In this document: in pieces, positions 25,472 to 63,764 of the stretch
Layout: every line of letters starts with the position of its first letter
Position numbering within the stretch: the first letter of the stretch is position 1
DNA from: an uncultured Spirochaetota bacterium
Lineage (GTDB): Bacteria > Spirochaetota > Spirochaetia > JAFGXN01
Reading direction: 5' to 3'
NCBI GenBank assembly: GCA_944390005.1
Contig: CALXOJ010000003.1
Span: 175,329-239,328 of the forward strand
DNA: 64,000 bases
Made by a program: the position numbers and the translations under genes
Notes under the pieces: model-generated
The model's input: only the letters and a program-made list of their open reading frames with translations
Databases searched by the model: none
Told to the model about the DNA's origin: nothing

Positions 25472-28400
25472 ATGATTCGAAAGTGTTTTTTTGTTGCAGG
25501 AATTCTGTTTTTTATCGGATGTCCGGCCTCGGAAGCTCAATACATTTATTTTGTCAATCAAAGCGGAGTGATTCTGCAGAAAGTTGAAATTCAAAATATG
25601 CAAAATCCCGACGGGAACGGCATCAAATATGAGAATCTCGGTGTAAATGAAAATTTTTCTTTGGAAAAGATGGATCTCGGTTTTTATCAAATCATTGTCC
25701 GCAGTGAAAAGTATGTCGGAACTTACACTGTGCTGCTGTCGGAGCAGCGCCCTTCCGCTACCTGTTGCCTGACTCCCGATTTCCGGTTGACTCATTCCGT
25801 TTCCGATTCCGTGAGGTTTCAGTCGTCGTCAGCTCTGACCCGGTTAAGCGCTCGGATTGATACGGTTTTGGAAGAGAGCCGGCGTGCCTGTGAAGATGCA
25901 AAAAATAAATATGCCGGGTTGATTGCCGGTTACCTTCCCGGAGGAGTGAGGATCTTATTTAACGGAGCGGAACTGAATACAGAGGAAGCTGTATTTGAGA
26001 ATATCGAGCATTTCGGGGAGTTTGAGATAACGTATTCAAATGATATTATTAAAAACGAAATCAATGACGGATTTTCCGTAATTTACCGGGAGTTTTTAAA
26101 CGCCCGTCCGGATCCGTTACAAAATATGCTGGAAATAAACGGTTTGTGCGGCGCTTCCGAGGACGAGGAGTATCTTTATTTTGAAGGGAATGCGGTCAGC
26201 AAACTTAACTTCGGAGCAGCCGCTTTCATTAAAATGTTATGCGGAATTTCAGAGATAGATCCGCCAACCGTAAAAGGATATCGAAACGATGTCTCTCCGA
26301 TTTGGGAGGAGGGTTACCGATATGCGTTTAAAGAAAATTTTTCCGAATCCGAAAAAAACTTTTTCCGCGAACGGTTGGCAGAATGGATGGAGGTTATTGA
26401 TAACCGGAGTTACTCGGCAAGTCAAATTCAATCCGAGTTTGAAATTCCGGCAGGAACACATCAATATAATTTATGGCATATCGGATGCTATTATTTGGGG
26501 ATGATCTATAAAAAGGACAGAAAGGAGGATGATTACTACGACAGCGGAAGCGGATTGTCGGGATTCCCCGGGAAAATGCCTTGGCAATGGATTACTCTTT
26601 ACGGAAAGGGCGTAGAAAGCAAACGTATTGTTTTACACGAAATCGGTCATAATTTGGGATTGATGCACGAACATCAGCGGTGGGACAGCGTAAATCATTT
26701 GCTTGATACGGAGGATTCCGTGCAATGGACACGGCTTCCCGGAAATCAGAAAACCGGTTATGATATTAATTCCGTTATGCATTATACTTCCATTGACTCT
26801 GGGCGAACCTCCGTTCATGATATTCATGGAAATATTGCCGCAAATTCAGGCTATTTGTCCGAGCTCGATAAAATCTTTATCTCCCGCTTATACAACCCCC
26901 ATTATTCCGGAAATCAATACCAATCGCCGGTTCCCGTGGTTGACAGAATTTTAATAAAGGATTCGAACGGGAAAAATCTGGCTATTTTTCATGAGGAAAA
27001 TGTGACCGGAGAATCTTTTGAAATGAGCGAGCCGGCGTCACTGAAAGATGATGTCTGGTTTGAGAGTGACGGCGTGGTTGCTGATAAAAAAAGAATCAAA
27101 TTGATTGAAAAGGGGGCTTTGGAACTCCCCGGAGGAAATGATCAGCCGACTCTGCCAAGAAAAGAGTATAACCGGTACGGTTTTTCTTATCAATCGGGGT
27201 ATGGAGACAAAGTTTATTACGTCGACGCCCGTTATACGAACAAAGTTGATATTTATATCAGGAAATTTGAATGGCAGAAACTGTCAACCCCTTCTCCGTA
27301 CAAACTGTATCACGGCAGCGAGTACAGTATTATGACTGTTCCTTTAACCGAGGCTTTGAACCGGATAGAGATTGTTTCGACAACCGTAAACGGATATTCG
27401 GTCAAATATATTTTCAATATAATAAAGGAAGAACAGTCATTGGAGTCTGTCCGCGCGCAGCTTTCCGGAGAGACGGTTTTTGAAAAAGATTCCGATGAAC
27501 TTCATCTTTCCCGTGTTTTTTACCTGAACTATATTTATAACGGAACTCCGCTTACATTATCCGCAGGGACAAAAACCGGGCAGACTGTGACAGTGAACGG
27601 AGCGGCTCAGACAAGTTGCTCCCTCAATTTAGAAAAAAATGAGTCCCGTCGGATTGATATCGAAGTCGGCTCTCTTTTTTCGGAACAAAAAACAACCTAC
27701 ACTTTTTATATTCAATGTCTTGATGAAGTTGCCGTTCCCGAGTCGGTTAAAATAACGTCGGGAGACGGAACCGTACTGGCGCAGGAGTCCGATGTTTGGA
27801 AATATTTTGATAATACGACGACTGTTGAAATTTTAAAGTCACCGGCAGCGTCTACCGTGAATATTGACTTTACTCTAAAAGAAAATCAGAAGATTTTTTA
27901 CAGTTCCGACAGGCGTGACTATAAAGAAATGAACACAGCTTTTGAAATCAGTCTTCCGCAGGACGATTCCGTTCATGCCTTCCGTGTCGATTATGACTTT
28001 AACGGAATTGACGACTCAAAAATTTTTTATTTAAGGTTTCAGAAATATACATTTTATAATTGCCGTGTGACGGTTCGGCCGGGCGGTGCGGTTAAAATGG
28101 AGGATACGGTAATTACTTCCGGAAGCCGGAGTTTTCAATGTCAGTCAAACCGCGTATATACCGTTCAATGCCGGGGGGCAACGGGATTCCGTCCCGAGGT
28201 TCCGCCTTCTTTGACGGAAACCGTTTATGACGGTATCTACCGGTTTCAGTTTTCCGGCGACAGTAGTGTTACGGTGGATTTTCCGGCTGTTTATCCCAAT
28301 CGTTATGAACATAGCGCGACGCTCAATCCTAAGGGAGAAGAAATCGACTGCCGTACAATTATCGAAGGAAATGATCTGTCGGTCAACGGGAATACAATTT

Positions 28401-28666
28401 ACCTGAAAAGTCCTTCGTCGGGATATAAAGTCAGAATTTACAAAGAAGAAAAAGAAGGCGGATATTTGTATAAAAACGAACTTTGGCTTGAAGATAATTC
28501 CATTGTTTTGGCTAACAAGGGAGGGACCATGTATAACGGATGGGTTGAAAAGGAATTTTCCGGGAATAACGTTTTCCGCAGAAAACTGTACGCATTAAAG
28601 GCCGGTGAAAATTTATGGGATATTTCCGCTCCTGTTTCCGTATTTTACAGCGGTCCGGTTTTTTAA
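25472..28666 (+). CDS. astacin-like (MEROPS M12A-type) zinc metallopeptidase lipoprotein with ~600-aa C-terminal extension of unknown function
   Basis: The zinc site is HEIGHNLGLMHEHQRWD (astacin pattern HExxHxxGxxHE). A Met-turn SVMHY lies 45 aa downstream. An LSELDKIFISRLYNP segment follows, as in astacins. Signal peptide ends with lipobox-like FFIGC. Sampled 60-mers run 37-45% GC against 55-65% in core genes. Confidence 0.75.
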   Translation: MIRKCFFVAGILFFIGCPASEAQYIYFVNQSGVILQKVEIQNMQNPDGNGIKYENLGVNENFSLEKMDLGFYQIIVRSEKYVGTYTVLLSEQRPSATCCLTPDFRLTHSVSDSVRFQSSSALTRLSARIDTVLEESRRACEDAKNKYAGLIAGYLPGGVRILFNGAELNTEEAVFENIEHFGEFEITYSNDIIKNEINDGFSVIYREFLNARPDPLQNMLEINGLCGASEDEEYLYFEGNAVSKLNFGAAAFIKMLCGISEIDPPTVKGYRNDVSPIWEEGYRYAFKENFSESEKNFFRERLAEWMEVIDNRSYSASQIQSEFEIPAGTHQYNLWHIGCYYLGMIYKKDRKEDDYYDSGSGLSGFPGKMPWQWITLYGKGVESKRIVLHEIGHNLGLMHEHQRWDSVNHLLDTEDSVQWTRLPGNQKTGYDINSVMHYTSIDSGRTSVHDIHGNIAANSGYLSELDKIFISRLYNPHYSGNQYQSPVPVVDRILIKDSNGKNLAIFHEENVTGESFEMSEPASLKDDVWFESDGVVADKKRIKLIEKGALELPGGNDQPTLPRKEYNRYGFSYQSGYGDKVYYVDARYTNKVDIYIRKFEWQKLSTPSPYKLYHGSEYSIMTVPLTEALNRIEIVSTTVNGYSVKYIFNIIKEEQSLESVRAQLSGETVFEKDSDELHLSRVFYLNYIYNGTPLTLSAGTKTGQTVTVNGAAQTSCSLNLEKNESRRIDIEVGSLFSEQKTTYTFYIQCLDEVAVPESVKITSGDGTVLAQESDVWKYFDNTTTVEILKSPAASTVNIDFTLKENQKIFYSSDRRDYKEMNTAFEISLPQDDSVHAFRVDYDFNGIDDSKIFYLRFQKYTFYNCRVTVRPGGAVKMEDTVITSGSRSFQCQSNRVYTVQCRGATGFRPEVPPSLTETVYDGIYRFQFSGDSSVTVDFPAVYPNRYEHSATLNPKGEEIDCRTIIEGNDLSVNGNTIYLKSPSSGYKVRIYKEEKEGGYLYKNELWLEDNSIVLANKGGTMYNGWVEKEFSGNNVFRRKLYALKAGENLWDISAPVSVFYSGPVF

Positions 28667-28688
28667 CATACAGGAAAAGGAGGCGGAA

Positions 28689-30311
28689 ATGAAAAATGCG
28701 AATCTTTTATTGATTCTGTTGACTCTTTGCGGTTGCGGTATCCGGGTGGGAACACGGGAATATCTTCGCTACACGGTAGAAACTCAAACGCCGATTTATT
28801 ACTCGTTTAACGATCATCCGGATCGGATAAAATGGAAAGAACTGCCGGCAAACGGAAGTGTCGAATTTCGGGAAACCGGAGAATTGCTGCTGAGCCGCAG
28901 TACTGACAGCAAAGATATTTTTTACACTCTTTTTCTTCCTTTTTTTAATATGAAAGCGCTTGCGGGCGCCGAGAATTTTCTCCTGTCCAGATCGTCCCCG
29001 ACTTCGCCGCAGGAATACTATTACATGGAACGCATTCTCCTGAATAACGGCTGGGCGCGTTCCTATTCCCGGGAATCCGGACTTAATATTTATCGCTACA
29101 AGCTTACGGTCGATAAAGCGATGGCCGAAGGTCCGAGGACGGATGTGGACGATATTTTTTCCGATTATGTCGAACGAATTTCCGGTGAATACAGAAATGC
29201 TGTAGAATCCTGTATTCTGGTTTATATGATGGCCGATAACGATTTGTATCAGAAAGCTGTCGACGATATCAATCGACTGGAGAGTGCGTACAGAGGTGTC
29301 GGCGATATCTTGGTTCATTTTGACGGAGCCGTCGGAACTTTGTATTCGGAAGCGGTTTTGCTGCGTATCAGACACGACAAAACTCCCGAAATAGCAAGCG
29401 ATATTGTTATCCGTTACGGAGAAGCTGACTCCTGCAGTCGGGAGCATCTGAACAGAGTGCTGCGTGAGTCCAATGCGAGGGGACTTGTTCTTTGGGCTCA
29501 CGGAAGCGGATGGCTGCCGGCACTTTTGGAGAGCGAAGAGATGCCGGTGCAGGTGAATCCAACCCTTTCCCGTTCTTTGGGTCCGGATGAAGAAGCCGGA
29601 ACAGAGCTCGATACTTCACACTTTTTTAACGCTGTCGGCGATGTCGGACTGGAGTTTATTTTGTTCGATGCCTGCCGTATGTCCGGTGTTGAAGTTGTTT
29701 CGGAAGTGAATTCTCATACCAATATGATTGCGCCTGTTTTCGATATTCCTCCCGGCAGTTTTCCGTATGAGGAGGAGGCGTTCCTGAAGGCGTTGCTGCT
29801 CTACGATTGCCAGGCGATTGTTGATAAAATTGTCGGATATAATGAACTCGGCGGACGCGAGATTTTTATGACGTGGAAAAAAACGTATCCCGGTGAATTT
29901 TTGCCAACGGTTTTTGAGAATTTCCTGAAGGGCAAAGTGGCTTCCGACGGAACCAAAATTGATCTTTCCGTTATCCGCCCTAATGTCAGACCGGTTGTTG
30001 CGGCGCAAGCCGGTAATGCGGTTCTTTTCTATGATTTTTATGATTTTGTCAGGCAACTCAACGGCGGCGCCGAGGTCGATTCCGTCCGATCCTTTTTGAA
30101 CGAAAATTTTTACATGAAGTCGACTCCGACCGTTTTAAACGGCGAAACTTCTTCTGACTACTGCGGCCTTTCCTGTTATATTCCTTATCATCTGACAGAG
30201 ACCGACAATGCGGATTTACTGCAGCTTAACAGCGATTATCTGCAGACATGGTGGGCAAGAAAATCGAAGATTCAAGAATATATTTTGCCGGTTGTCGGCG
30301 AATCGCCTTAA
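28689..30311 (+). CDS. clostripain-like (peptidase C11 family) cysteine peptidase, secreted
   Basis: A VYMMADNDL strand is followed by a His in LVLWAHGSGW and a catalytic Cys in FILFDACRMSG about 55 aa later. This order and spacing are typical of C11/CD-clan peptidases. Start placed at ATG 28689 with RBS GGAAAAGGAGG. N-terminal signal MKNANLLLILLTLCGCG. Confidence 0.6.
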   Translation: MKNANLLLILLTLCGCGIRVGTREYLRYTVETQTPIYYSFNDHPDRIKWKELPANGSVEFRETGELLLSRSTDSKDIFYTLFLPFFNMKALAGAENFLLSRSSPTSPQEYYYMERILLNNGWARSYSRESGLNIYRYKLTVDKAMAEGPRTDVDDIFSDYVERISGEYRNAVESCILVYMMADNDLYQKAVDDINRLESAYRGVGDILVHFDGAVGTLYSEAVLLRIRHDKTPEIASDIVIRYGEADSCSREHLNRVLRESNARGLVLWAHGSGWLPALLESEEMPVQVNPTLSRSLGPDEEAGTELDTSHFFNAVGDVGLEFILFDACRMSGVEVVSEVNSHTNMIAPVFDIPPGSFPYEEEAFLKALLLYDCQAIVDKIVGYNELGGREIFMTWKKTYPGEFLPTVFENFLKGKVASDGTKIDLSVIRPNVRPVVAAQAGNAVLFYDFYDFVRQLNGGAEVDSVRSFLNENFYMKSTPTVLNGETSSDYCGLSCYIPYHLTETDNADLLQLNSDYLQTWWARKSKIQEYILPVVGESP

Positions 30312-33248: not shown

Positions 33249-33668
33249 TTTGGTTTTACCGACAGTGGTAATTCATACTCTCTTCCGCGCGCAGTTGATT
33301 CGGAGTTAGGCGGCTCTTCTGCGAATTCTTTAGAACGCGCCGTGCAGTAAGCCGCCGGGTTTGTTGCGTTCAGTCAATTTTTTACTGTTTAAAAGAGCTT
33401 ATTGCGGTTCTCGGGGTAGTTGCGTCCGAAATCCTTTGCCGGAAGCCGATCCTGCAAGGCGTGCGCCCCTTTTTCGGATCCGCCGCCTTCAACGCAGTCT
33501 CCTGTGCCTTTTGAACCGCCCACCGCCTCATTTGTTCTATTCTTTTGCTGCCCAAAAACGCATAAAAAAAAGAAAAAGTTTTTTCAAAAAAACCTCTTTT
33601 TTGACATTAATCATGATAGAGCGTATGTAAAAACTTCGCAGCAAAAGCCCCAAATCCGCGGAGGTGTT

Positions 33669-34451
33669 ATGAAAAACTACAGCGAACTGACCCTAACCGA
33701 CGACTACCTGTTCAGCCAAGTAATGAAAGACGAAAGCGTGTGCAAGCCGTTTCTGGAAATGCTTCTGGAAATCAAAATAGCCAAAATTGAGTATTTGCAG
33801 GAACAGAAAGAGTTGAACCTCTTCCCCGACTCCAAAGGCGTAAGGCTGGACGTCTACCTTGAAGGAGACGGAAAGGTGTACAACATCGAAATGCAGGCAG
33901 GACGCGATCAATACCTCATCTGCCGAATGCGCTACTACCGGGCGGCGATCGACATCGACATGATGATGAGAGGCAGCGGGTACCGGGAACTGAAACCCGT
34001 GTATATCATATTTCTCTGCCGATTTGACCCGATAGGGAAGGGATTGGCGAGGTACACGCTGAGGAAATACTGTGAGGAGACGGGAGAAAAAATCGATGAC
34101 GGACAGACGGAAATCGTGTATAATGTGAATGCGTATGAGAGAGCGGGGCGCGGGAAGGTACGGGAGCTTCTGAGGTATTTAGCGACCGGAGAGGCGCAGG
34201 AACCGGAGGTGAAGGAGTTTGCTAAGAAGATAGCCCGTTTTAAAGAGACGCAGCAGTGGAGAAAAGGAAACATGAAATACGAGTTAGATTTACAAGACGC
34301 CCGCATTGAAGGAAAGGAAGAGGGACGCAGTGAGACACTGCTGCTGATTATTGAGAATGGAGTGAAGCAAGGGTTAACGCCCGAGCAGACGGCGGCGCTG
34401 ACGGGGTTAACGGTTGACGAGGTGGAAGCACTGCGGAAGCGGATTCGGTAA
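33669..34451 (+). CDS. Rpn-family PD-(D/E)XK nuclease / 'putative transposase' (TIGR01784-like), copy 1
   Basis: The D...E.Q core is VRLDVYLEGDGKVYNIEMQ. The C-terminal low-complexity E/G repeat tail (EGKEEGRSE) and helix ...GLTPEQTAALTGLTVDEVEAL are typical of this family. The first 214 aa are identical to copy 2. Confidence 0.75.
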   Translation: MKNYSELTLTDDYLFSQVMKDESVCKPFLEMLLEIKIAKIEYLQEQKELNLFPDSKGVRLDVYLEGDGKVYNIEMQAGRDQYLICRMRYYRAAIDIDMMMRGSGYRELKPVYIIFLCRFDPIGKGLARYTLRKYCEETGEKIDDGQTEIVYNVNAYERAGRGKVRELLRYLATGEAQEPEVKEFAKKIARFKETQQWRKGNMKYELDLQDARIEGKEEGRSETLLLIIENGVKQGLTPEQTAALTGLTVDEVEALRKRIR

Positions 34452-34577
34452 AAACGATCGATTTTCAAATAAATCCGTTCTCGAAGCTCAAACCCGCCTT
34501 TACCCGCGCCCGGTTTTCCAAAGGCGTTTCGCTGCCCTAAACGGGAACGAAAGTTGCCTCAAAAGACACAAAACACC

Positions 34578-34860
34578 GCGTTAAAGACGACAGATTCTCA
34601 AACGCAACCCACCGCAGTCGAAGCTTAAAATATTGCGTTAAAATCCACTGATTCGCCAAAGAAACTCACAGCTATCGAAGTTTACCCACTACGTTAAAAT
34701 CCACCGATTCGCCAAAGAAACCCGCCGCAGCCGAAGCTCAAAATATTGCGTTAAAGGCCTCTGATTCGCCAAAGACATCAAACATTGCGAAGTCAAAAAA
34801 TTCCCTTTAAAGGCGGCAGATTCTCAAATAAAACCACAGCGGTATTAAATAAAGACGCAA
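34578..34860. repeat. tandem array of ~5 degenerate 56-57-bp repeats downstream of Rpn copy 1
   Basis: Units start at 34578, 34635, 34691, 34748 and 34804. The consensus is roughly GCGTTAAAATCCACCGATTCGCCAAAGAAACCCACCGCAGCCGAAGCTCAAAATATT. The same family lies at 39601-39815. Confidence 0.7.
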
Positions 34861-35741
34861 ACACGATTGTCTTGGAGTCGAGCGCTGTGACGGAGGGCTC
34901 AAACACGTATACGGCAACTTTATCCGCGTTCGGATACACGAATTTACAGTTGAGTTGGGCGAATGTAGAGATCGACAAAACCGCCCCCTTACAAATTCTT
35001 GGTGTTTCGTTTGATAGGACAGCGGATGGAACCTCTGTCACCGCTAACTGGACCTTGCCGAATGGACATGACATTGCCAAAGTCGTTTTCACTGAATTGG
35101 TCGGCAATGGAAATACTTCTTCAGACAGCGTAAATGCGTCGCACGTTACAGACAAAGAAGGCGGTATCGTTGCAGAATTTTCTATAACAGGGGCAAATGA
35201 AACCAGCGGTGTTATTGATGATTTAACAGCTGACGCCCCCTATTGGTTCATGGTTCACACTGAAGACGCGGCGGGCAACAAAAGCGTGCGCGCAAGGGAT
35301 AGCGTCGCCGGAACTGTTGCGCCGGACGACAACGGCTTCATGGTGCGGTTCACTTCATCTCAACTGGATGAAGAAGCGCCTTACATAACGAATGCAACCG
35401 GTTATTTTGACGGGACGCATTACATTTTTTCATGGGATAATCCGAACGGATACGACGTTAAGATTGCCAAAAAAGGTGCAAATTTGGCACTTGGAGAGAG
35501 CGACGGCAGCTCAGAAGGCATCGTTGAATGGATCACGGATGAAACCGACAGCAACAAGAAAATCGGCGCAAAAGTCAAACTGGGTGAGGTGACAAATTCC
35601 TACAATTTCCGTTTGATGGTTTACGCGACGGATTCAGATACGGCTTCAACCAATACACCTGATACAACCAATGACTTTCAAGCGTTCTGTCTTTTCTATT
35701 TCCCGGAAAATCAGGCCAATGAGGTTACGCCTGCAAATTAA
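34785..35741 (+). pseudogene. 5'-truncated fragment of a fibronectin-type-III-like surface protein gene
   Basis: The ORF starts at a TTG inside the repeat array, and its first ~25 codons are translated repeat sequence. There is no signal peptide. The downstream part shows two FN3-like modules (e.g. DKTAPLQILGVSFDRTADGTSVTANWTLPNGHD) and ends at a strong terminator. Confidence 0.35.
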
Positions 35742-35876: not shown

Positions 35877-38231
35877 ATGAAGAAGCGTAAATCAGCACTT
35901 TCTTTATTATCGGTAACAGCGGCGTTATTGGCGGGCGGCTGCCCCGAAACGCCGCCGATTGAGTCGCAGACGCCTGGAGGGGATACGGAAAATCCCGGAG
36001 GCGGCGGTACAGTGACGCCGTCCGGCCGCATGAATATCATTTTGTTCATGGTTGACGACATGGGGCTTAACGACTCGTCGGTTCAGTTTTTGGAGGGCGG
36101 TTCGAAATTGAACGAATATTACCACACTCCGAATATGGAGCGGTTGGCAGAAAAGGGGGTCCGCTTTACAAGCGCTTACGCCGCGCCCGTATCCTCGCCG
36201 ACGCGCATTAGTTTGATGACAGGTTCCAACGCAGCGCGCCACCGCGTGACCAACTGGACACTGAATCTCAATGACAACACTGATGCCTCGTTTCAAAATA
36301 ATTTGGCAGGACAGCCGTGGAACTGGAACGGTATTTCTCCCGATGTTAACGGTGACGTAACCTCAAACAACATTTATGAAACCACAACATTCCCACAGAT
36401 TTTACAAAAAAACGGGTACCGCACCATCCACCTCGGAAAGGCGCACTGGGGGGCTATCAGCACAAAGGCGGCTGAACCGCTGAACCTCGGTTTTGACGTC
36501 AATATCGGCGGGGCGGCGCCGGGAGGTCCGGATAACTATGCCCTTACTAATGCTTCACAGGAGTACACCGGTTTTCAAATCCCATTTCCGCGTCTCAATG
36601 AATACGCGACAGCCGAAACAAATTACCACATTACCGACGCGATTACCAACGCCGCGCGGTCGGAGATTGACCGCGCCGTCGAGGACGGAACGCCGTTTTA
36701 TATGTACATGTCGCACTACGCCGTCCATTCGCCGTATACTCAGCCAGATGAGCGCTTTTACAAATTCTACGAGGGTAAATCAACAGCTGACCAGACGATT
36801 TACGGAACGAGGAACAAGAACTACGGAACGCTGGTCACCGGTATGGATAAATCCCTCGGCGAGCTGATGGATTACTTGGAAGAAAAAGGGATTGCCGATA
36901 AAACCATCTTGATTTTTATGGCTGACAACGGCGGACACCATGATAACAAAAATACGCCGCTTAGAGGCTCAAAAGGATCGATGTGGGAAGGCGGTATTCA
37001 TGAGCCGATGATGGTTTACTGGCCGGGCGTGACCGATGCTTATGCCGGTCAAAAGAATGATTCGCCTGTCATAATTGAAGATTTTTATCCGACAATTTTG
37101 GAAATGGCAGGCGTCGCTCCCGGAAGTTACGACAGCGAACTGAAGCAGACTGTCGACGGCAAGAGCTTTGTATCTGCGTTAAAAGGCAATAAGCCCATCA
37201 ATACCGATCGCGCACTCTATTTTCATTATCCGAACAAGTGGGGGGAGGCAACTACTCTGAATAGTGATCCCGTCGGTTTTCCGTCAAGCGCCATCATCAA
37301 AGACGGATGGAAGTACATTTATTTCTACGGCACCGGTAAAGAATATCTCTTCAATCTGACAGCAGACGAAATTGAAGAGACAAATTTGGCAGAGACTAAT
37401 GCCGAGAAAAAAGCAGAATTGGCGAAAGATTTGTCCGATTACCTGAAATCGGTCGACGCAACCATGGTTTATGACAGCACTTCGGGAGTGATTACTTATC
37501 CGGACGGCACAACGGATAATGCATTTACATACAAAGTGGGAGACGACAATGTCTTTTACATCGATATCAACGATCAAAACGGATCGGTAGAGAATGAGCC
37601 GTTAGCCGGCCGCGGTGCACACACTGGTGCGGTAACAGAAGAAGACAACTTCACGATTTCTTTTGAAGATGGAACAGAAGTGACCGGTTCGATAGCGTGG
37701 ACCGGCACTGTAAAACCCAACGGTGACAACGGAAGGTTTGCTTCTGTGGAAGAAGCCAATGCGTTCGGCAGCCTGTTCTCCGGTTTCACAAAAGAAGAAA
37801 CTTTAAGCAATGCTCTGCTTCCTGTTTGGGCGGATGCGGTAACGCTGGAGACGGATAGTCCTTCGGCTGTCATTCTATTGGAAGGCCTGCCTGAAGGAAC
37901 ATACGAAATCGGTTTGCTGAGTGTGCGCAATAACAGCTACTACGGAACGAACAACGGCAGTCTGATTAAAAACGCTGTTTACGACATAACCACCGGAACC
38001 GTAAGCGAGGCACAAGCTTTCGGAACCAAGAAAAACGTTGCCGACAGCAATTTGACAGATAAAGCGGTGCTGTCTGAAACCGATAAGTTTACCGTGAATC
38101 AAGACGCCGGTACGGACTCCGAAGTGTGGGGTTTCCGTTTCAGCTGGACAGTGACTCCCGAAAATGAAAGGATTGAAATCACTGTTTCCGGAACCTGCTC
38201 CTTGAATGCGTTGAGAGTCGAAAAACGTTGA
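35877..38231 (+). CDS. Ser-type sulfatase lipoprotein with ~230-aa C-terminal module of unknown function
   Basis: Lipoprotein signal MKKRKSALSLLSVTAALLAGGC. The sulfatase signature S-S-P-T-R-ISLM-TG has Ser at the formylglycine position. The metal-binding DDMG is near the N-terminus. A C-terminal extension from ~aa 553 is homologous to the C-terminus of the 62082-63764 protein. Confidence 0.85.
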   Translation: MKKRKSALSLLSVTAALLAGGCPETPPIESQTPGGDTENPGGGGTVTPSGRMNIILFMVDDMGLNDSSVQFLEGGSKLNEYYHTPNMERLAEKGVRFTSAYAAPVSSPTRISLMTGSNAARHRVTNWTLNLNDNTDASFQNNLAGQPWNWNGISPDVNGDVTSNNIYETTTFPQILQKNGYRTIHLGKAHWGAISTKAAEPLNLGFDVNIGGAAPGGPDNYALTNASQEYTGFQIPFPRLNEYATAETNYHITDAITNAARSEIDRAVEDGTPFYMYMSHYAVHSPYTQPDERFYKFYEGKSTADQTIYGTRNKNYGTLVTGMDKSLGELMDYLEEKGIADKTILIFMADNGGHHDNKNTPLRGSKGSMWEGGIHEPMMVYWPGVTDAYAGQKNDSPVIIEDFYPTILEMAGVAPGSYDSELKQTVDGKSFVSALKGNKPINTDRALYFHYPNKWGEATTLNSDPVGFPSSAIIKDGWKYIYFYGTGKEYLFNLTADEIEETNLAETNAEKKAELAKDLSDYLKSVDATMVYDSTSGVITYPDGTTDNAFTYKVGDDNVFYIDINDQNGSVENEPLAGRGAHTGAVTEEDNFTISFEDGTEVTGSIAWTGTVKPNGDNGRFASVEEANAFGSLFSGFTKEETLSNALLPVWADAVTLETDSPSAVILLEGLPEGTYEIGLLSVRNNSYYGTNNGSLIKNAVYDITTGTVSEAQAFGTKKNVADSNLTDKAVLSETDKFTVNQDAGTDSEVWGFRFSWTVTPENERIEITVSGTCSLNALRVEKR

Positions 38232-38277: not shown

Positions 38278-38643
38278 GTATTTCGGGCGCGTGCGCGCCG
38301 CAAGCGGCGCGCACCGGGCTTTCCGCTGCAATTCGCAGCCTCCCGCGCCTTTACCGAGGCAAAGCTGCCGCTTTGCCCTGCGCCATCTCTCCGTCGGCAG
38401 CTCATTTCCGCTCCAATCCCTCGCGCCTTCGAAAGCGTGCGCCCCTTTTTCGAATCCGCCGCCTCCAACGCAGTATCCTGTGCCTTTTGAGTCTCATACA
38501 GCCTCATTTGTTCTATTCTTTTGCTGCCCAAAAACGCATAAAAAAAAGAAAAAGTTTTTCAAAAAAACCTCTTTTTTGGCATTAATCATGATAGAGCGTG
38601 TGTAAAAACTTCGCAGCAAAAGCCCCAAATCCGCGGAGGTGTT

Positions 38644-39474
38644 ATGAAAAACTACAGCGAACTGACCCTAACCGACGACTACCTGTTCAGCCAAGTAATG
38701 AAAGACGAAAGCGTGTGCAAGCCGTTTCTGGAAATGCTTCTGGAAATCAAAATAGCCAAAATTGAGTATTTGCAGGAACAGAAAGAGTTGAACCTCTTCC
38801 CCGACTCCAAAGGCGTAAGGCTGGACGTCTACCTTGAAGGAGACGGAAAGGTGTACAACATCGAAATGCAGGCAGGACGCGATCAATACCTCATCTGCCG
38901 AATGCGCTACTACCGGGCGGCGATCGACATCGACATGATGATGAGAGGCAGCGGGTACCGGGAACTGAAACCCGTGTATATCATATTTCTCTGCCGATTT
39001 GACCCGATAGGGAAGGGATTGGCGAGGTACACGCTGAGGAAATACTGTGAGGAGACGGGAGAAAAAATCGATGACGGACAGACGGAAATCGTGTATAATG
39101 TGAATGCGTATGAGAGAGCGGGGCGCGGGAAGGTACGGGAGCTTCTGAGGTATTTAGCGACCGGAGAGGCGCAGGAACCGGAGGTGAAGGAGTTTGCTAA
39201 GAAGATAGCCCGCTTTAAAGAGACGCAGCAGTGGAGGAAAGGAAACATGAAATACGAATTAGACTTACAAGACGCCCGTGCGGAAGGCATTGAAATCGGA
39301 CGAAGCGAAGGGCTGGAAGAAGGATTGGAGAAAGGCCATTCCGAGGGACGTTATGAAATGGCTGTCCTTATCACAGAAAATATGATGAAGCAAGGATTAA
39401 CGCCCGAACAGACGGCGGCGCTGACGGGGTTAACGGTTGACGAGGTGGAAGCACTGCGGAGGCGGATGCGGTAA
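38644..39474 (+). CDS. Rpn-family PD-(D/E)XK nuclease / 'putative transposase' (TIGR01784-like), copy 2
   Basis: Identical to copy 1 over the first 214 aa. It has a longer C-terminal E/G-repeat tract (AEGIEIGRSEGLEEGLEKGHSEGRYEMAVLITENMM), 16 aa more than copy 1. Confidence 0.75.
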   Translation: MKNYSELTLTDDYLFSQVMKDESVCKPFLEMLLEIKIAKIEYLQEQKELNLFPDSKGVRLDVYLEGDGKVYNIEMQAGRDQYLICRMRYYRAAIDIDMMMRGSGYRELKPVYIIFLCRFDPIGKGLARYTLRKYCEETGEKIDDGQTEIVYNVNAYERAGRGKVRELLRYLATGEAQEPEVKEFAKKIARFKETQQWRKGNMKYELDLQDARAEGIEIGRSEGLEEGLEKGHSEGRYEMAVLITENMMKQGLTPEQTAALTGLTVDEVEALRRRMR

Positions 39475-39600
39475 AAACGATCGATTTTCAAATAAATCCG
39501 CTCTCGAAGCTCAAACCCGCCTTTACCCGCACCTGATTTTCCGAAGGCGTTTCGTTACCCTAAACGGGAACGAAAGTTGCCTTAAAAGACCCAAAACACC

Positions 39601-39815
39601 GCGTTAAAAGCGACAGATTCTCAAATAAAGCCACAGTTGTCGAAGCTCAAAATATTGCGTTAAAATCCACCGATTCGCCAAAGAAAACCACAGCTGTCGA
39701 AGTTTAACCACTGCGTTAAAAGCGCCCGATTCTCCAAAGAGCCCCACAGCAGTCGAAGCTCAAAATACTGCGTTAAAATCCACCGATTCGCCAAAGAAAC
39801 CCACCGCAGCCGAAG
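39601..39815. repeat. tandem array of ~4 56-57-bp repeats downstream of Rpn copy 2
   Basis: Units start at 39601, 39657, 39713 and 39770. Same family as 34578-34860. Confidence 0.7.
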
Positions 39816-40617: not shown

Positions 40618-41331
40618 ATGGGGAAAAATTTGACTGTATTTTTTACAGGGTTGTTTTTGGCTCTCGGTATTGCCGCGGCTGGCGGAGCTGTCTGTTACGG
40701 TTTGATTGCAGGAAAACAGGCTAACCGGACGGTAAGTGTTCGCGGTTTAGCCGAGCGTGAGGTTGATGCCGATCTGGCGGTGTGGCCGTTGAAGTTTACC
40801 GTCGCTGCCGATGATTTGACTTCTTTAAACGAGGCGGTCAAACGCGATTCGGCTATAGTCGAAGCGTATCTGGCGAAAAATAACGTCGGCAAGGCTGATA
40901 TTGTCAAGCAGTCGATCAATGTCGACGATGAAGCGCAGAGAATGTATGCCAATTCTACGCCGCGTCCGTACCGTTACATCGGGGAGGTGACTTTCTTGAT
41001 TCGTTCTGTTAACATTGAAGCGGTTAAAGCGGCCGACCGCAATTTGAGGGATTTGATTGCGCAGGGGGTGCTTTTGTCGAATAATTACGGCGCTTCACAG
41101 GCACAGTTTCTCTTCAACGGATTGAACGACATTAAACCCGATATGATTGCCGAAGCCACTGTCAATGCGCGGGCAGCCGCCGATCAATTTGCTAAAGATT
41201 CAGGCAGCCGTGTCGGACGCATTAAAACGGCGACGCAGGGACTTTTTTCGATCACCGATGTTAACGAAGCGATGCCGGAGAAGAAAATCGTTCGTGTGGT
41301 TAACACCGTTGAATACTTTTTGACGGATTGA
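40618..41331 (+). CDS. SIMPL (DUF541) domain periplasmic protein
   Basis: An N-terminal TM/signal precedes RTVSVRGLAERE, the first beta-strand of the SIMPL fold. The C-terminal pattern A...AAADQFAKDSGSRVGRI fits this family. Confidence 0.5.
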   Translation: MGKNLTVFFTGLFLALGIAAAGGAVCYGLIAGKQANRTVSVRGLAEREVDADLAVWPLKFTVAADDLTSLNEAVKRDSAIVEAYLAKNNVGKADIVKQSINVDDEAQRMYANSTPRPYRYIGEVTFLIRSVNIEAVKAADRNLRDLIAQGVLLSNNYGASQAQFLFNGLNDIKPDMIAEATVNARAAADQFAKDSGSRVGRIKTATQGLFSITDVNEAMPEKKIVRVVNTVEYFLTD

Positions 41332-41342
41332 GGCCCGGAAAG

Positions 41343-42854
41343 ATGAAAAATCAGTTGCTTTTCGGGTTTTCGATTATCACGACGGGAGTGTTTGCTCAGG
41401 CGAATGATCGTCCGAACGTGGTTTTTGTCGTTGGGGATGATGTCGGTTACGGCGATTTGAGTTGTTACGGTGCAGAGAAGATTCAAACTCCGAATTTGGA
41501 TCGGTTAGCGTCGGACGGCTGCCGTTTTACGGCGGCTCACAGCTCGGCGGCAACTTCGACTCCGGCGCGGTATGCGCTGCTTACGGGGACTTACGGATTT
41601 CGTTCGGGAATGGATGTTTTGCCGGGAGATGCGGCGATATCGATTCCCGAGGATAAAATGACGCTTCCGATGGTGTTTCAAAAGGCCGGTTACGAAACGG
41701 CAGTTGTCGGAAAGTGGCACTTGGGTTTGGGACGAGGAAAAATCGATTGGAATCAGCCGATTTCTCCGTCGCCAAATGACGTCGGTTTCGACTACAGTTT
41801 TATTATTCCTGCCACCAACGATCGGGTACCGTGCGTTTATGTACAAAACGGTTCGGTTGTCAATGCGGATCCCGATGATCCGATTACTGTCGATTACAAG
41901 AATCCGATTTTGGGAAGCGAATATCCCGACGGCCGCCGTCAACCGGAGACGATGGCGGAATATCCAAGCAGTCACGGTCACAATATGTCGGTTATTAACG
42001 GAATCGGACGAATCGGTTACATGAAGGGTGGAAAAAAGGCTTTGTGGAACGATGAAACCATTGCCGACACTTTGCTTGGAGAGGCAGTCGATTTTATCGA
42101 AAAACACCGAACGGAACCTTTTTTTCTAATGTTTAACTCCAACGATATTCACGTGCCGCGAGTTCCGCATCCGCGCTTCCGAGGCGTATCGCAGCACGGT
42201 TTGCGCGGCGATGCTATGGTTCAGTTGGACTGGTGTGTCGGTGAGTTGATGAAAACATTGGATCGTTTCGGATTGACGGAAAACACGATTTTCATCTTTA
42301 CTAGTGACAACGGTCCCGTTTACGACGACGGTTACCGGGACGGATCGACCGTTCATCTTTTCAGTAAAGAGAATGACAATGGACATGATGCCAGCGGTCC
42401 GTGGTTTGGTGGAAAATACGATATGCGCGAAGGCGGTACCTGCGTGCCGCTGATTATCCGCTGGCCGAATCGGGTAAAACCTGCTTCCGAATCCGATGCA
42501 TTGGCAGCGCAAATCGATTTCCTTGCAACCTTTGCCGATTGGTTTTCTGTTCCGCTTTCCGATGATGAGGCTTTGGACAGTGTCGCGCGTTTTGATCTCT
42601 TTTTCAACAATGCGCCGGCGAAAGAGCCGCAAGTTTTGATTGAAGAGAGCTATGATCGCCTTTCACTTCGCTGGGGCCAATGGAAGTACATGGAAAAAGG
42701 AAAGAAGCTGTTTGATTTAAACGAATCGCTTGAAGAAAAGAAAAATCTTCGTTTTCAAAACCGAGACGAGTATGAATTTGCCTCCGAGACTTTAAAGACA
42801 TTAAAAAAGATCGGTGTGCGCGAATGGATGAAATCTGTAGAGACTCTTGAATAA
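41343..42854 (+). CDS. Ser-type sulfatase (arylsulfatase family), secreted
   Basis: Signal MKNQLLFGFSIITTGVFAQA. GDDVGYGD metal site. Signature S-T-P-A-R-YALL-TG has Ser at the formylglycine position. Start placed at ATG 41343; the listed 41328 is a TTG. Confidence 0.85.
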   Translation: MKNQLLFGFSIITTGVFAQANDRPNVVFVVGDDVGYGDLSCYGAEKIQTPNLDRLASDGCRFTAAHSSAATSTPARYALLTGTYGFRSGMDVLPGDAAISIPEDKMTLPMVFQKAGYETAVVGKWHLGLGRGKIDWNQPISPSPNDVGFDYSFIIPATNDRVPCVYVQNGSVVNADPDDPITVDYKNPILGSEYPDGRRQPETMAEYPSSHGHNMSVINGIGRIGYMKGGKKALWNDETIADTLLGEAVDFIEKHRTEPFFLMFNSNDIHVPRVPHPRFRGVSQHGLRGDAMVQLDWCVGELMKTLDRFGLTENTIFIFTSDNGPVYDDGYRDGSTVHLFSKENDNGHDASGPWFGGKYDMREGGTCVPLIIRWPNRVKPASESDALAAQIDFLATFADWFSVPLSDDEALDSVARFDLFFNNAPAKEPQVLIEESYDRLSLRWGQWKYMEKGKKLFDLNESLEEKKNLRFQNRDEYEFASETLKTLKKIGVREWMKSVETLE

Positions 42855-54171: not shown

Positions 54172-54328
54172 AAAATTATGAACGACGACAGAAGCAAGCA
54201 AGCAGTATCTTTATGTAACAAATCAGAAAAGTCCTCATTCGGTAACAAAGGGCGGTGTTTTCCCCAAGGGGAAATGCCGTCTTTTTTTATATTCCCACAA
54301 ATTTATTAAAAAGATGGAGGAAAGAACG

Positions 54329-62081: not shown

Positions 62082-63764
62082 ATGGCGCGCCGTTTTTTCG
62101 TTTCCTTTTTGATTTTGATTTTTTTTACCGGATGTCAGACGATCCGCATTTCCCGGGCGCAGTACGCGTCGGTTTACTTCAATTTGGCTAACGCTTACCG
62201 TGAACTGGAAAAGACGGATGATGCGTTAAAGGCGTACTATGAAGCACTGCGGGTGGATCCGTCACTGACACGAAATTCCTTCAATTTTTCAAAGCTTTTA
62301 ATCGAAAAAAAACGTTACGACGAAGCGCTGAAACTTCTGATTCCGATGCATGACGCCTCTCCTCAAAACACAATGATCCTCGAAGTTTTGGCTTATGTCT
62401 ACTATTTGAAAGGCGACTACACCGAGGCGGCCTCCTGTTATAAAACGATTCTGACCATCGATCCCCGTCACGAAAACGCACTCTTCAATTCGGCATTGCT
62501 TTACGAGGCGTTGGATATGCCGCGCGAGGCTTACGAGCGGTTGATCGAAACGCTTCCGTTTTTGGAAGATACGACCGACGCGCTGAAGAAAATCGCGCTG
62601 CTTGCCTATGATATCGGAGAATACGAGGATGCGCTGAAGTACATGAACGACTATTTGGCGAAGAAGAGCGACGATACGTCGATTGAATGGGAGTATGCGC
62701 GTATTTTGGCGAAGAACAAAGATTTTGAAAAGGCAGCCGAAATTTACGATAAATTGGATACAGACGCCAATACAAATGCCGAATTGACATTCGAACGAGC
62801 GGAGGTATATCTGCTCGGAATGGAGTCGTTTGAAAAAGGAAAAGAGATTTTAGCGAGGGCGATTGAAAACGGATTTTGGGAGACAGATCGGCTGTACGCG
62901 CTGGCGACAGCGCCCGATTTTCTCTATGGCGAGGAAATTACTGCTTATTTAAAAGAAGAAAATCTCTTTTTCAATCCGGAGAAAGAACGGTTGGCGGCGG
63001 CGCGTGCTGTTGAACGGCGCCGCGCGGCCGCGGAAGAGGCGAAGAAGGAAGCCGAAGCGGAAGAGGCCGGCGAAAGTGCGGGCGCTTCTTACGAAATCGG
63101 CGATGACAACGTTTTCTATGTCGATTTTAACGATCAAAAGGGAACTGTCGAAGACGAACCGGTTGTCGCGAGCGGCGGAAATGCGGATGCGCTTTCGGCC
63201 AGTGAGTCTTTTATTGCGATTTTTGACGGCGGAGATGAGGCGCTTGTTTCCGTTTCGTATTCAGGAACGGTGAAGCCTTCTTCTTCCGGAGGACTGTTCA
63301 ACAGCGTTTCGGATGCCGAGTCGTTCGGCAGCCTTTTCGGCGGATTTATGCGTGAAGATCCTCTGTCGAAAGACGGTTTGCCGATTTGGAGCGATTCCGT
63401 TTCGCTGGAATCGGAGTCATCGTCGGTCGTTCTCCGTCTCGAAAATCTGCCCGCCGGCACATACGAAATCGGTTTGCTGAGCGTCCGAAACGATACCTCC
63501 GTCGAAACGGATGCAGTCTTTGATGTGACCGTCGGCACGGTCAGCGGTGAACCGTCGGCAGTCGGTTTTACGGAAGACGGCGGCAGCGCTCCCGACGACG
63601 CCGTCCTGTCGGAAACGGACAAGTTTACCGTTTCCCGCAGCAGCGGCTCCGAAGCCCGCGGTTACGCGTTCATCTGGACGGTTGAGCCGGAAGACGGCGT
63701 TGCGGAGATTACCGTTTCCGGTACCTGTGCTTTGAACGCCGTTCGCGTTGAAAAGACCAATTAA
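62082..63764 (+). CDS. TPR-repeat lipoprotein with the same ~230-aa C-terminal module as the 35877 sulfatase
   Basis: Signal/lipobox MARRFFVSFLILIFFTGC. About 8 TPR repeats, then an A/E-rich linker. From GDDNVFYVDFNDQKG (nt ~63099) to the end it is homologous to sulfatase aa ~553-784. Confidence 0.65.
   Translation: MARRFFVSFLILIFFTGCQTIRISRAQYASVYFNLANAYRELEKTDDALKAYYEALRVDPSLTRNSFNFSKLLIEKKRYDEALKLLIPMHDASPQNTMILEVLAYVYYLKGDYTEAASCYKTILTIDPRHENALFNSALLYEALDMPREAYERLIETLPFLEDTTDALKKIALLAYDIGEYEDALKYMNDYLAKKSDDTSIEWEYARILAKNKDFEKAAEIYDKLDTDANTNAELTFERAEVYLLGMESFEKGKEILARAIENGFWETDRLYALATAPDFLYGEEITAYLKEENLFFNPEKERLAAARAVERRRAAAEEAKKEAEAEEAGESAGASYEIGDDNVFYVDFNDQKGTVEDEPVVASGGNADALSASESFIAIFDGGDEALVSVSYSGTVKPSSSGGLFNSVSDAESFGSLFGGFMREDPLSKDGLPIWSDSVSLESESSSVVLRLENLPAGTYEIGLLSVRNDTSVETDAVFDVTVGTVSGEPSAVGFTEDGGSAPDDAVLSETDKFTVSRSSGSEARGYAFIWTVEPEDGVAEITVSGTCALNAVRVEKTN

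Follow-up and report, generated by a model that had tools for sequence, protein, structure and literature searches.

The locus analysed here raises the question of why a sulfatase and an otherwise unrelated tetratricopeptide repeat (TPR) lipoprotein, encoded in the same genomic region of an uncultured Spirochaetota bacterium, should end in closely similar sequences, and what the shared region of approximately 230 amino acids might contribute to two such different proteins. Both genes lie in a stretch of 64,000 nucleotides, hereafter the window (assembly GCA_944390005.1, contig CALXOJ010000003.1, positions 175,329 to 239,328). A reading of this DNA made without database searches, hereafter the sequence-only reading, had described the shared region as an unrecognised mobile module, specific to its lineage, with a suggested role in surface anchoring or sorting, carbohydrate binding or partner recognition. 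The analysis presented below supports an unclassified sequence family with a predicted β-jelly-roll fold, for which we consider glycan binding a candidate function.

A module shared by two unrelated lipoproteins

Comparison of the two full-length proteins by BLASTP aligns residues 552-783 of the sulfatase with residues 337-558 of the TPR protein (51% identity; 70% positives; 12 gaps in 233 columns; e-value: 7e-62), and no further significant alignment is obtained outside the module. This confirms the C-terminal module of about 230 residues described for both proteins, and all of the conserved blocks that had been quoted for it, namely FGSLF(S/G)GF, LP(E/A)GTYEIGLLSVRN, AVLSETDKFTV and SGTC(S/A)LNA(L/V)RVEK, are found. 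The interval assigned to the sulfatase copy, 37539-38231, is correct, with the alignable part opening 3-4 codons further upstream (37527/37530). By tblastn, exactly two copies of the module occur in the window (Table 1). Nucleotide-level similarity between the two copies survives only as short patches of 74-84% identity, and as such they are old paralogs that go back to an old duplication or transfer. They are not the product of a recent fusion, which the sequence-only reading had named among the outcomes that would refute it.

The N-terminal parts share nothing that aligns, in keeping with the proposal of one discrete module on unrelated proteins. That of the sulfatase comprises Pfam Sulfatase (PF00884; residues 53-413; e-value: 2.2e-46) and SGSH_C (PF16347; residues 366-525; e-value: 7.2e-12) domains, with a serine-type formylglycine motif, SSPTR, at residues 106-110. 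Given its catalytic domain and (C/S)-x-P-x-R motif, the translated product can be classed by sequence as an S1 formylglycine-dependent sulfatase. The TPR protein carries its repeat array (Pfam TPR_1, TPR_2, TPR_19 and related families) at residues ~25-260 of 560, and an Ala/Glu/Arg-rich charged linker (…AAARAVERRRAAAEEAKKEAEAEEAGE) precedes the module. Putative lipoboxes were read by eye from the translations of both genes, …LLAGGC in the sulfatase (MKKRKSALSLLSVTAALLAGGC) and …FFTGC in the TPR protein (start MARRFFVSFLILIFFTGC).

Table 1. Coordinates of the two module-bearing genes and of other features of the window
Feature	Position	Strand	Description
Sulfatase lipoprotein open reading frame	35877-38231	+	784 aa
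Sulfatase N-terminal part	35877..37526	+	Signal peptide with putative lipobox, Gly/Pro-rich linker, S1 sulfatase, SGSH_C, short linker to module
Module copy 1	37527..38231	+	Residues 551-784 of the sulfatase lipoprotein (the C-terminal 234) and stop codon
TPR lipoprotein open reading frame	62082-63764	+	560 aa
TPR lipoprotein N-terminal part	62082..63086	+	Signal peptide with putative lipobox, TPR array, charged linker
Module copy 2	63087..63764	+	Residues 336-560 of the TPR lipoprotein (the C-terminal 225) and stop codon (BLASTP, tblastn)
Direct repeats, ~1.2 kb	33456-34600 and 38432-39623		92% identity across 1193 bp; one on either side of the sulfatase and upstream open reading frame
PD-(D/E)XK 'PDDEXK_2' transposase-like genes (PF12784)	33669-34451 and 38644-39474		One per repeat
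Gene directly upstream of the sulfatase	34785-35741		318 aa; no signal peptide; sub-threshold FN3 match
Second S1 sulfatase	41328-42854		508 aa; without the module
Two paralogous proteins	54314-55666 and 56001-57563		Flg_new repeats and FGE-sulfatase (PF03781) domain
Two adjacent genes	25472-30311		Both products large and exported-looking: 1064-aa protein with astacin-like (M12A) segment; 568-aa clostripain-family (C11) peptidase
Non-coding element, ~150 nt	38282-38431		Just 3′ of the sulfatase stop codon
Inverted copy of the non-coding element	57801-57955		Downstream of the gene at 56001-57563
Region with internal nucleotide repeats	54-57.7 kb		80-100% identity, seen against the L002 contig

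A small, previously unclassified sequence family

The module was compared with the curated libraries Pfam-A 2025, NCBIfam r20 and PHROGs v4. In isolation it matches no Pfam and no NCBIfam family at an e-value of 1 or below, the six family members give no consistent Pfam match at an e-value of 10 or below, and PHROGs returns noise only (e-values: 0.02-0.05). Likewise, a profile of the family retrieves nothing at an e-value of 10 or below among 177,635 distinct PDB sequences, and no Pfam carbohydrate-binding module (CBM) or Malectin model matches the module. The description of the module as previously unrecognised therefore holds, no search with hidden Markov models having assigned it to a well-known domain, and on these comparisons it constitutes a very small, unclassified sequence family. 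As it fails the tests of membership by sequence, it cannot be shown to belong to an existing CBM family (CBM6/35/36/57/61/86).

An exhaustive HMMER search of 1.84 billion representatives of 50% identity clusters yielded two strong matches (P0004 and P0005) and one remote match (P0006). As this library collapses proteins at 50% identity, and the TPR protein of the window is itself absent from the matches despite its presence in the collection, the family counts are lower bounds. P0004 (787 aa) is an ortholog of the sulfatase. P0005 is a lipoprotein of 631 aa in which Flg_new (Listeria-Bacteroides) repeats and leucine-rich repeats (LRR) are followed by a C-terminal copy of the module, and by its sequence it represents a third unrelated N-terminal context. 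The translations of the three spirochete module proteins all begin with putative lipoprotein signal peptides. A word-indexed search of 5.8 billion proteins returned only three fragments, none of them from outside this lineage, to which queries with the six-sequence profile and the P0006 N-terminus added none. Two scans of JGI metagenome contigs, one using the family alignment and the other the P0006 N-terminus, found nothing. Among 185,579 species-representative genomes only 'uncultured Spirochaetes bacterium BRZ_BB bin28' (L002) was retained; it encodes a copy of the TPR protein which, together with its flanks, is 96-99% identical to the window. The exact sulfatase sequence occurs in at least 36 assembly blocks and that of the TPR protein in at least 26, from samples with the prefixes BRZ_ and ONAT22-1_. 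The organism is therefore common in these cohorts, and the intact fusions prevail.

The remote match, P0006, is a protein of 1255 aa (library-wide e-value: 1.2e-9) in which the module-like region, residues ~25-255, directly follows a hydrophobic leader and is succeeded by a Pro/Asp/Glu-rich linker, the N-terminal, catalytic and C-terminal domains of a family 95 glycoside hydrolase (GH95), and a BACON domain. Alignment of the spirochete family with this N-terminus by hhalign gives 98% probability (e-value: 1.5e-13; 126 columns), and MAFFT extends the alignment through the final strand. Directly upstream of the GH95 gene, positions 170-967 of the same contig (L006) encode a product with a hydrophobic leader, a region of ~215 residues which can be aligned with the module over its whole length (local hmmsearch e-value: 6e-4; hhalign: 70.7%, e-value: 3.8e-5) and a PEP-CTERM signal (PF07589; e-value: 1.2e-5). 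This is a probable, though not certain, stand-alone module. The leaders of both products are, from their translations, of the signal-peptide type. A second PEP-CTERM protein of ~265 aa is encoded on this contig (13211-14002) and does not align with the module; besides the PEP-CTERM signal, no Pfam domain is found in either of these two ~265-aa proteins. The module is carried in four or five architectures, the fifth being the probable stand-alone PEP-CTERM protein. The architecture of P0005 and the remote N-terminal copy on the GH95 fucosidase P0006 confirm that the module moves between proteins, in agreement with the mobility proposed for it. The proposed lineage specificity is likewise supported, in that the searches show the module to be nearly restricted to its lineage.

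Several further candidates were rejected. A Prevotellaceae repeat protein of 4596 aa (L003) from the genome scan was dismissed as a compositional match, its 79 aligned residues being Gly/Thr/Val-rich repeats with 30% identity. Two proteins from the exhaustive search, P0007 with choline-binding-type repeats and P0008 with repeats of the VCBS-like kind, were set aside as repeat-driven noise, with 6 and 14 short stretches that match 30-36 profile positions. P0003, encoded at 98-622 of a 658-nt scaffold (L004), was not counted as a fourth architecture and is probably an assembly chimera: 29 residues from the N-terminus of a DUF378 domain (PF04070) are joined, at the motif …GSLFGG… common to both, to the final 145 residues of the module of the TPR copy.

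Predicted fold and conserved residues

The AlphaFold2 (AF2) model produced from the single sequence was poor (predicted local distance difference test, pLDDT: 49.6) and was not used for fold searches. With the six-sequence alignment, a model of higher confidence was obtained (pLDDT: 81.4; predicted TM-score, pTM: 0.84), nearly all of it β-structure, with 13 β-strands and three short helices which fall at model residues 74-101, over the conserved FGSLFxGF…LPxW segment. The module is thus predicted to form one autonomous β-jelly-roll domain of ~225 residues with a short helical insertion near the conserved FGSLFxGF…PxWxD stretch. The top match of a Foldseek search against the PDB is TmCBM61 (e-value: 7.6e-6), but with TM-scores below 0.3. 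Classified CBMs occupy a long run of the structural matches, namely CBM61, CBM86, CBM35, CBM36, CBM29, a porphyran-binding CBM, a xanthan-lyase chain and the binding modules of a sialidase and a hyaluronate lyase. Sequence identity in these structural alignments is 4-18%. The Foldseek list also holds ligand-binding domains of Eph receptors (e-values: 3e-5 to 1e-4), 4-1BBL and MAM, and a viral fold library yielded generic jelly rolls only (TM-score at most 0.45). The β-sandwich or CBM-like fold for which structure prediction had been recommended was accordingly recovered, in the form of a predicted jelly roll with CBM-dominated matches.

In the copies of the spirochete, in P0006 and in the PEP-CTERM protein encoded beside it, 12 positions are invariant (sulfatase numbering): D563, G619, F621, W651, D653, Y676, L681, S682, R684, T739, P761 and G772. 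A central strand, YEIGLLSVR, contains Y676, L681 and S682, which probably belong to the core. D563, W651, D653 and R684 are placed at strand ends or in loops of the predicted model. CBMs of the loop-site kind contact their ligand or Ca2+ at strand ends and loops, and we infer that these four residues may build a putative ligand-binding or Ca2+ site.

Glycan binding as the favoured function

As predicted, the module is a discrete, non-catalytic β-sandwich, the form generally expected of a CBM, and in the S1 sulfatase and the GH95 protein P0006 it is contiguous with a carbohydrate-active catalytic module, which is not the case in the TPR and Flg_new/LRR proteins. Its fold class, its sulfatase and GH95/BACON partners, the adhesin-like Flg_new/LRR partner and the precedent of Amuc0953, discussed below, lead us to favour a non-catalytic carbohydrate-binding (lectin- or CBM-like) candidate, a reading to which we attach about even confidence. 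Of the three functions that the sequence-only reading had offered, carbohydrate binding is therefore the one preferred, on the strength of the predicted jelly roll and its CBM-dominated matches, and sorting or anchoring is not supported. Fused through a flexible linker to exported proteins, the module would tether its functional partner to a glycan and so raise the local concentration of that partner on a polymeric target; the parts tethered in this manner would be the S1 sulfatase, the TPR scaffold, the adhesin-like LRR/Flg_new array and, in the distant relative, the GH95 fucosidase. With a sulfatase and a fucosidase among the partners, our best guess for the ligand is a mucin-type glycan of host or dietary origin that is sulfated and/or fucosylated. 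The second S1 sulfatase, the paired Flg_new/FGE-sulfatase proteins, the astacin-like protein and the C11 peptidase encoded in the window (Table 1) are consistent with a lifestyle in which host or dietary macromolecules are degraded.

Several observations weigh against glycan binding. The TPR lipoprotein is not a usual partner for a CBM. Its gene lies among those for a bactofilin, FeoB, a CitMHS transporter, a second TPR protein and a MiaB-like enzyme of the radical-SAM type. The AF2 model was built on six sequences, of which about four are effectively distinct, and the jelly roll also serves in protein-protein recognition, with Eph, tumour necrosis factor (TNF)-family ligands, MAM and viral capsids or tail fibres among the fold matches. 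Lastly, the sulfatase-linked copy may be dispensable or fast-evolving, as its ratio of nonsynonymous to synonymous substitution rates (dN/dS) is close to 1 and it is interrupted in two metagenomic variants.

The module might instead address proteins to the cell's own envelope, its lectin-like fold binding an envelope polymer such as peptidoglycan or a surface or periplasmic glycan and thereby co-localising the three lipoproteins at one site of the envelope instead of directing them to a nutrient. We consider this unlikely: the remote relative is found on a secreted GH95-BACON fucosidase, a setting in which CBMs normally target the substrate, and no copy was found in other spirochetes, which share the same envelope chemistry, the family amounting to one species among the 185,579 genomes and two lineage clusters among the 1.84 billion representatives. 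A further reading, which we hold to be somewhat less probable, makes the module a lineage-restricted 'address tag', not a nutrient-directed CBM, which would bring enzyme, TPR scaffold and LRR adhesin to a common envelope or host-surface receptor. It would pass between genes for surface proteins at a locus that is prone to recombination and lies between PD-(D/E)XK transposase-like repeats, with the sulfatase copy under diversifying selection or being lost in some strains. Protein-protein recognition or oligomerisation, in which the jelly roll would join the sulfatase, TPR and LRR proteins into one complex via a common partner or via itself, is in our view more doubtful again; the Foldseek matches to Eph receptor domains, 4-1BBL and MAM point in this direction, as does the nature of the TPR and LRR partners, both of them scaffolds that bind proteins.

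A C-terminal sorting or secretion signal, read by an export or anchoring machine in the manner of a C-terminal domain (CTD) from the type IX secretion system (T9SS), was suggested by the C-terminal position of the module in all three spirochete proteins and by the conservation of its last strand, SGTCxLNAxR(V/I)EK. This conserved terminus, from which the sequence-only reading had derived surface anchoring, is the predicted last β-strand of the module, and in P0006 the homologous domain is N-terminal, ahead of the linker and catalytic domains. Furthermore, a separate, genuine PEP-CTERM sorting signal follows the module in the protein encoded beside P0006, the ~225 residues of the module are about three times the length of known sorting domains (~70-100), no sorting-domain model in NCBIfam or Pfam matches it, and the spirochete proteins already bear putative lipoprotein signals. 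The sorting-signal explanation is thus largely refuted. That the module is itself a small enzyme, a catalytic jelly roll like those of GH16, GH11/12 or polysaccharide lyase family 7 (PL7), which would render the proteins bifunctional, is compatible with the size of ~225 residues and the fold class, draws no support from the fold match lists and is very improbable.

Should glycan binding be confirmed, the module would found a new carbohydrate-binding module family, known solely from uncultured spirochetes, which many metagenome assemblies contain, and from a single distant bacterium that uses PEP-CTERM signals, and its ligand would point to the glycan on which the sulfatase of these spirochetes acts. 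Annotation pipelines for carbohydrate-active enzymes and sulfatases leave these ~230 residues blank, a gap that the family would fill. No novel kind of biological system is thereby revealed, as secreted enzymes and adhesins commonly carry accessory modules of the lectin-like sort.

Selection and strain variation at the sulfatase locus

In comparison with the ortholog of L002, the TPR-linked module is under purifying selection, with a dN/dS of 0.20, against 0.04 for the N-terminal part of the TPR protein; we count this in favour of the glycan-binding reading. In the sulfatase, compared with that of a strain of ~89% identity (L001), dN/dS is 0.54 over the catalytic part and reaches about 1.0 over the module, and a value of about 1.0 is also obtained for the module against a second variant, L005; these module estimates derive from small counts, 15-22 nonsynonymous against 4-7 synonymous differences. 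In L001 a frameshifting deletion of 116 bp has removed the part of the sulfatase module that corresponds to 37860-37975 of the window (L001 3385-3390). The upstream Flg_new-LRR-module gene of L001, which is intact in L007 (P0005), is split by a deletion of 56 nt (L001 ~505-545) that parts the LRR from the module. On the L005 contig, sequenced at 2.2x coverage, the gene calls break at 614-627, where the catalytic domain of the sulfatase is parted from its module. The breaks in L001 and L005 may be assembly errors or real decay.

Overall, the gene of the sulfatase seems the less stable of the two. The two direct repeats that bracket it (Table 1) share, in addition to their transposase-like genes, an upstream non-coding segment. 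The position directly upstream of the sulfatase, which in the window is taken by a 318-aa open reading frame, is occupied by the Flg_new, LRR and module lipoprotein (P0005) in L001 (1-1283) and L007 (353-2248), and nucleotide synteny between the window and these contigs resumes exactly at position 35739. As such, this repeat-flanked, strain-variable locus is a plausible setting for the shuffling of modules.

Some further features of the region were observed. The metagenomic contigs that bear the sulfatase are in many cases short, with 27 blocks holding only contigs of 2-5 kb, or end near the repeats. Furthermore, the ~150-nt non-coding element located just 3′ of the sulfatase and its inverted copy show 83-87% identity (via comparisons with L001 and L002), and internal nucleotide repeats are evident in the region of the Flg_new/FGE-sulfatase genes (Table 1).

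Comparison with known systems

Among known domains, the module is probably, on its predicted fold, a distant structural relative of the β-jelly-roll CBMs, such as CBM61, CBM35/36/6, CBM86 and the porphyran-binding CBM (8xmz), with Malectin/CBM57-type domains also among the closest, namely the C-terminal module of Bacteroides GH2 glucuronidases (6ed1/6d50) and the malectin-like domain of FERONIA (6a5e). It differs from these CBMs in that no sequence similarity is detectable by the PDB profile search or Pfam, both at e-values up to 10, in its size of ~225 residues against 110-150, in its helical insertion and in its occurrence on TPR and LRR proteins. The T9SS CTD and PEP-CTERM signals resemble the spirochete module in their C-terminal position on diverse exported proteins, whereas the module is about threefold larger, matches none of their models, is N-terminal in P0006 and co-occurs with a PEP-CTERM signal in the product of the neighbouring gene. 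A parallel in protein organisation is offered by Amuc0953 of Akkermansia muciniphila, a multi-domain S1 sulfatase whose extra N-terminal domain binds colonic mucin (PMC13524802). Both proteins combine an S1 sulfatase core with an additional non-catalytic domain. That of Amuc0953 is an N-terminal parallel β-helix, different in fold and position from the module, and the C-terminal domain of Amuc0953 resembles a T9SS CTD, which the spirochete module does not.

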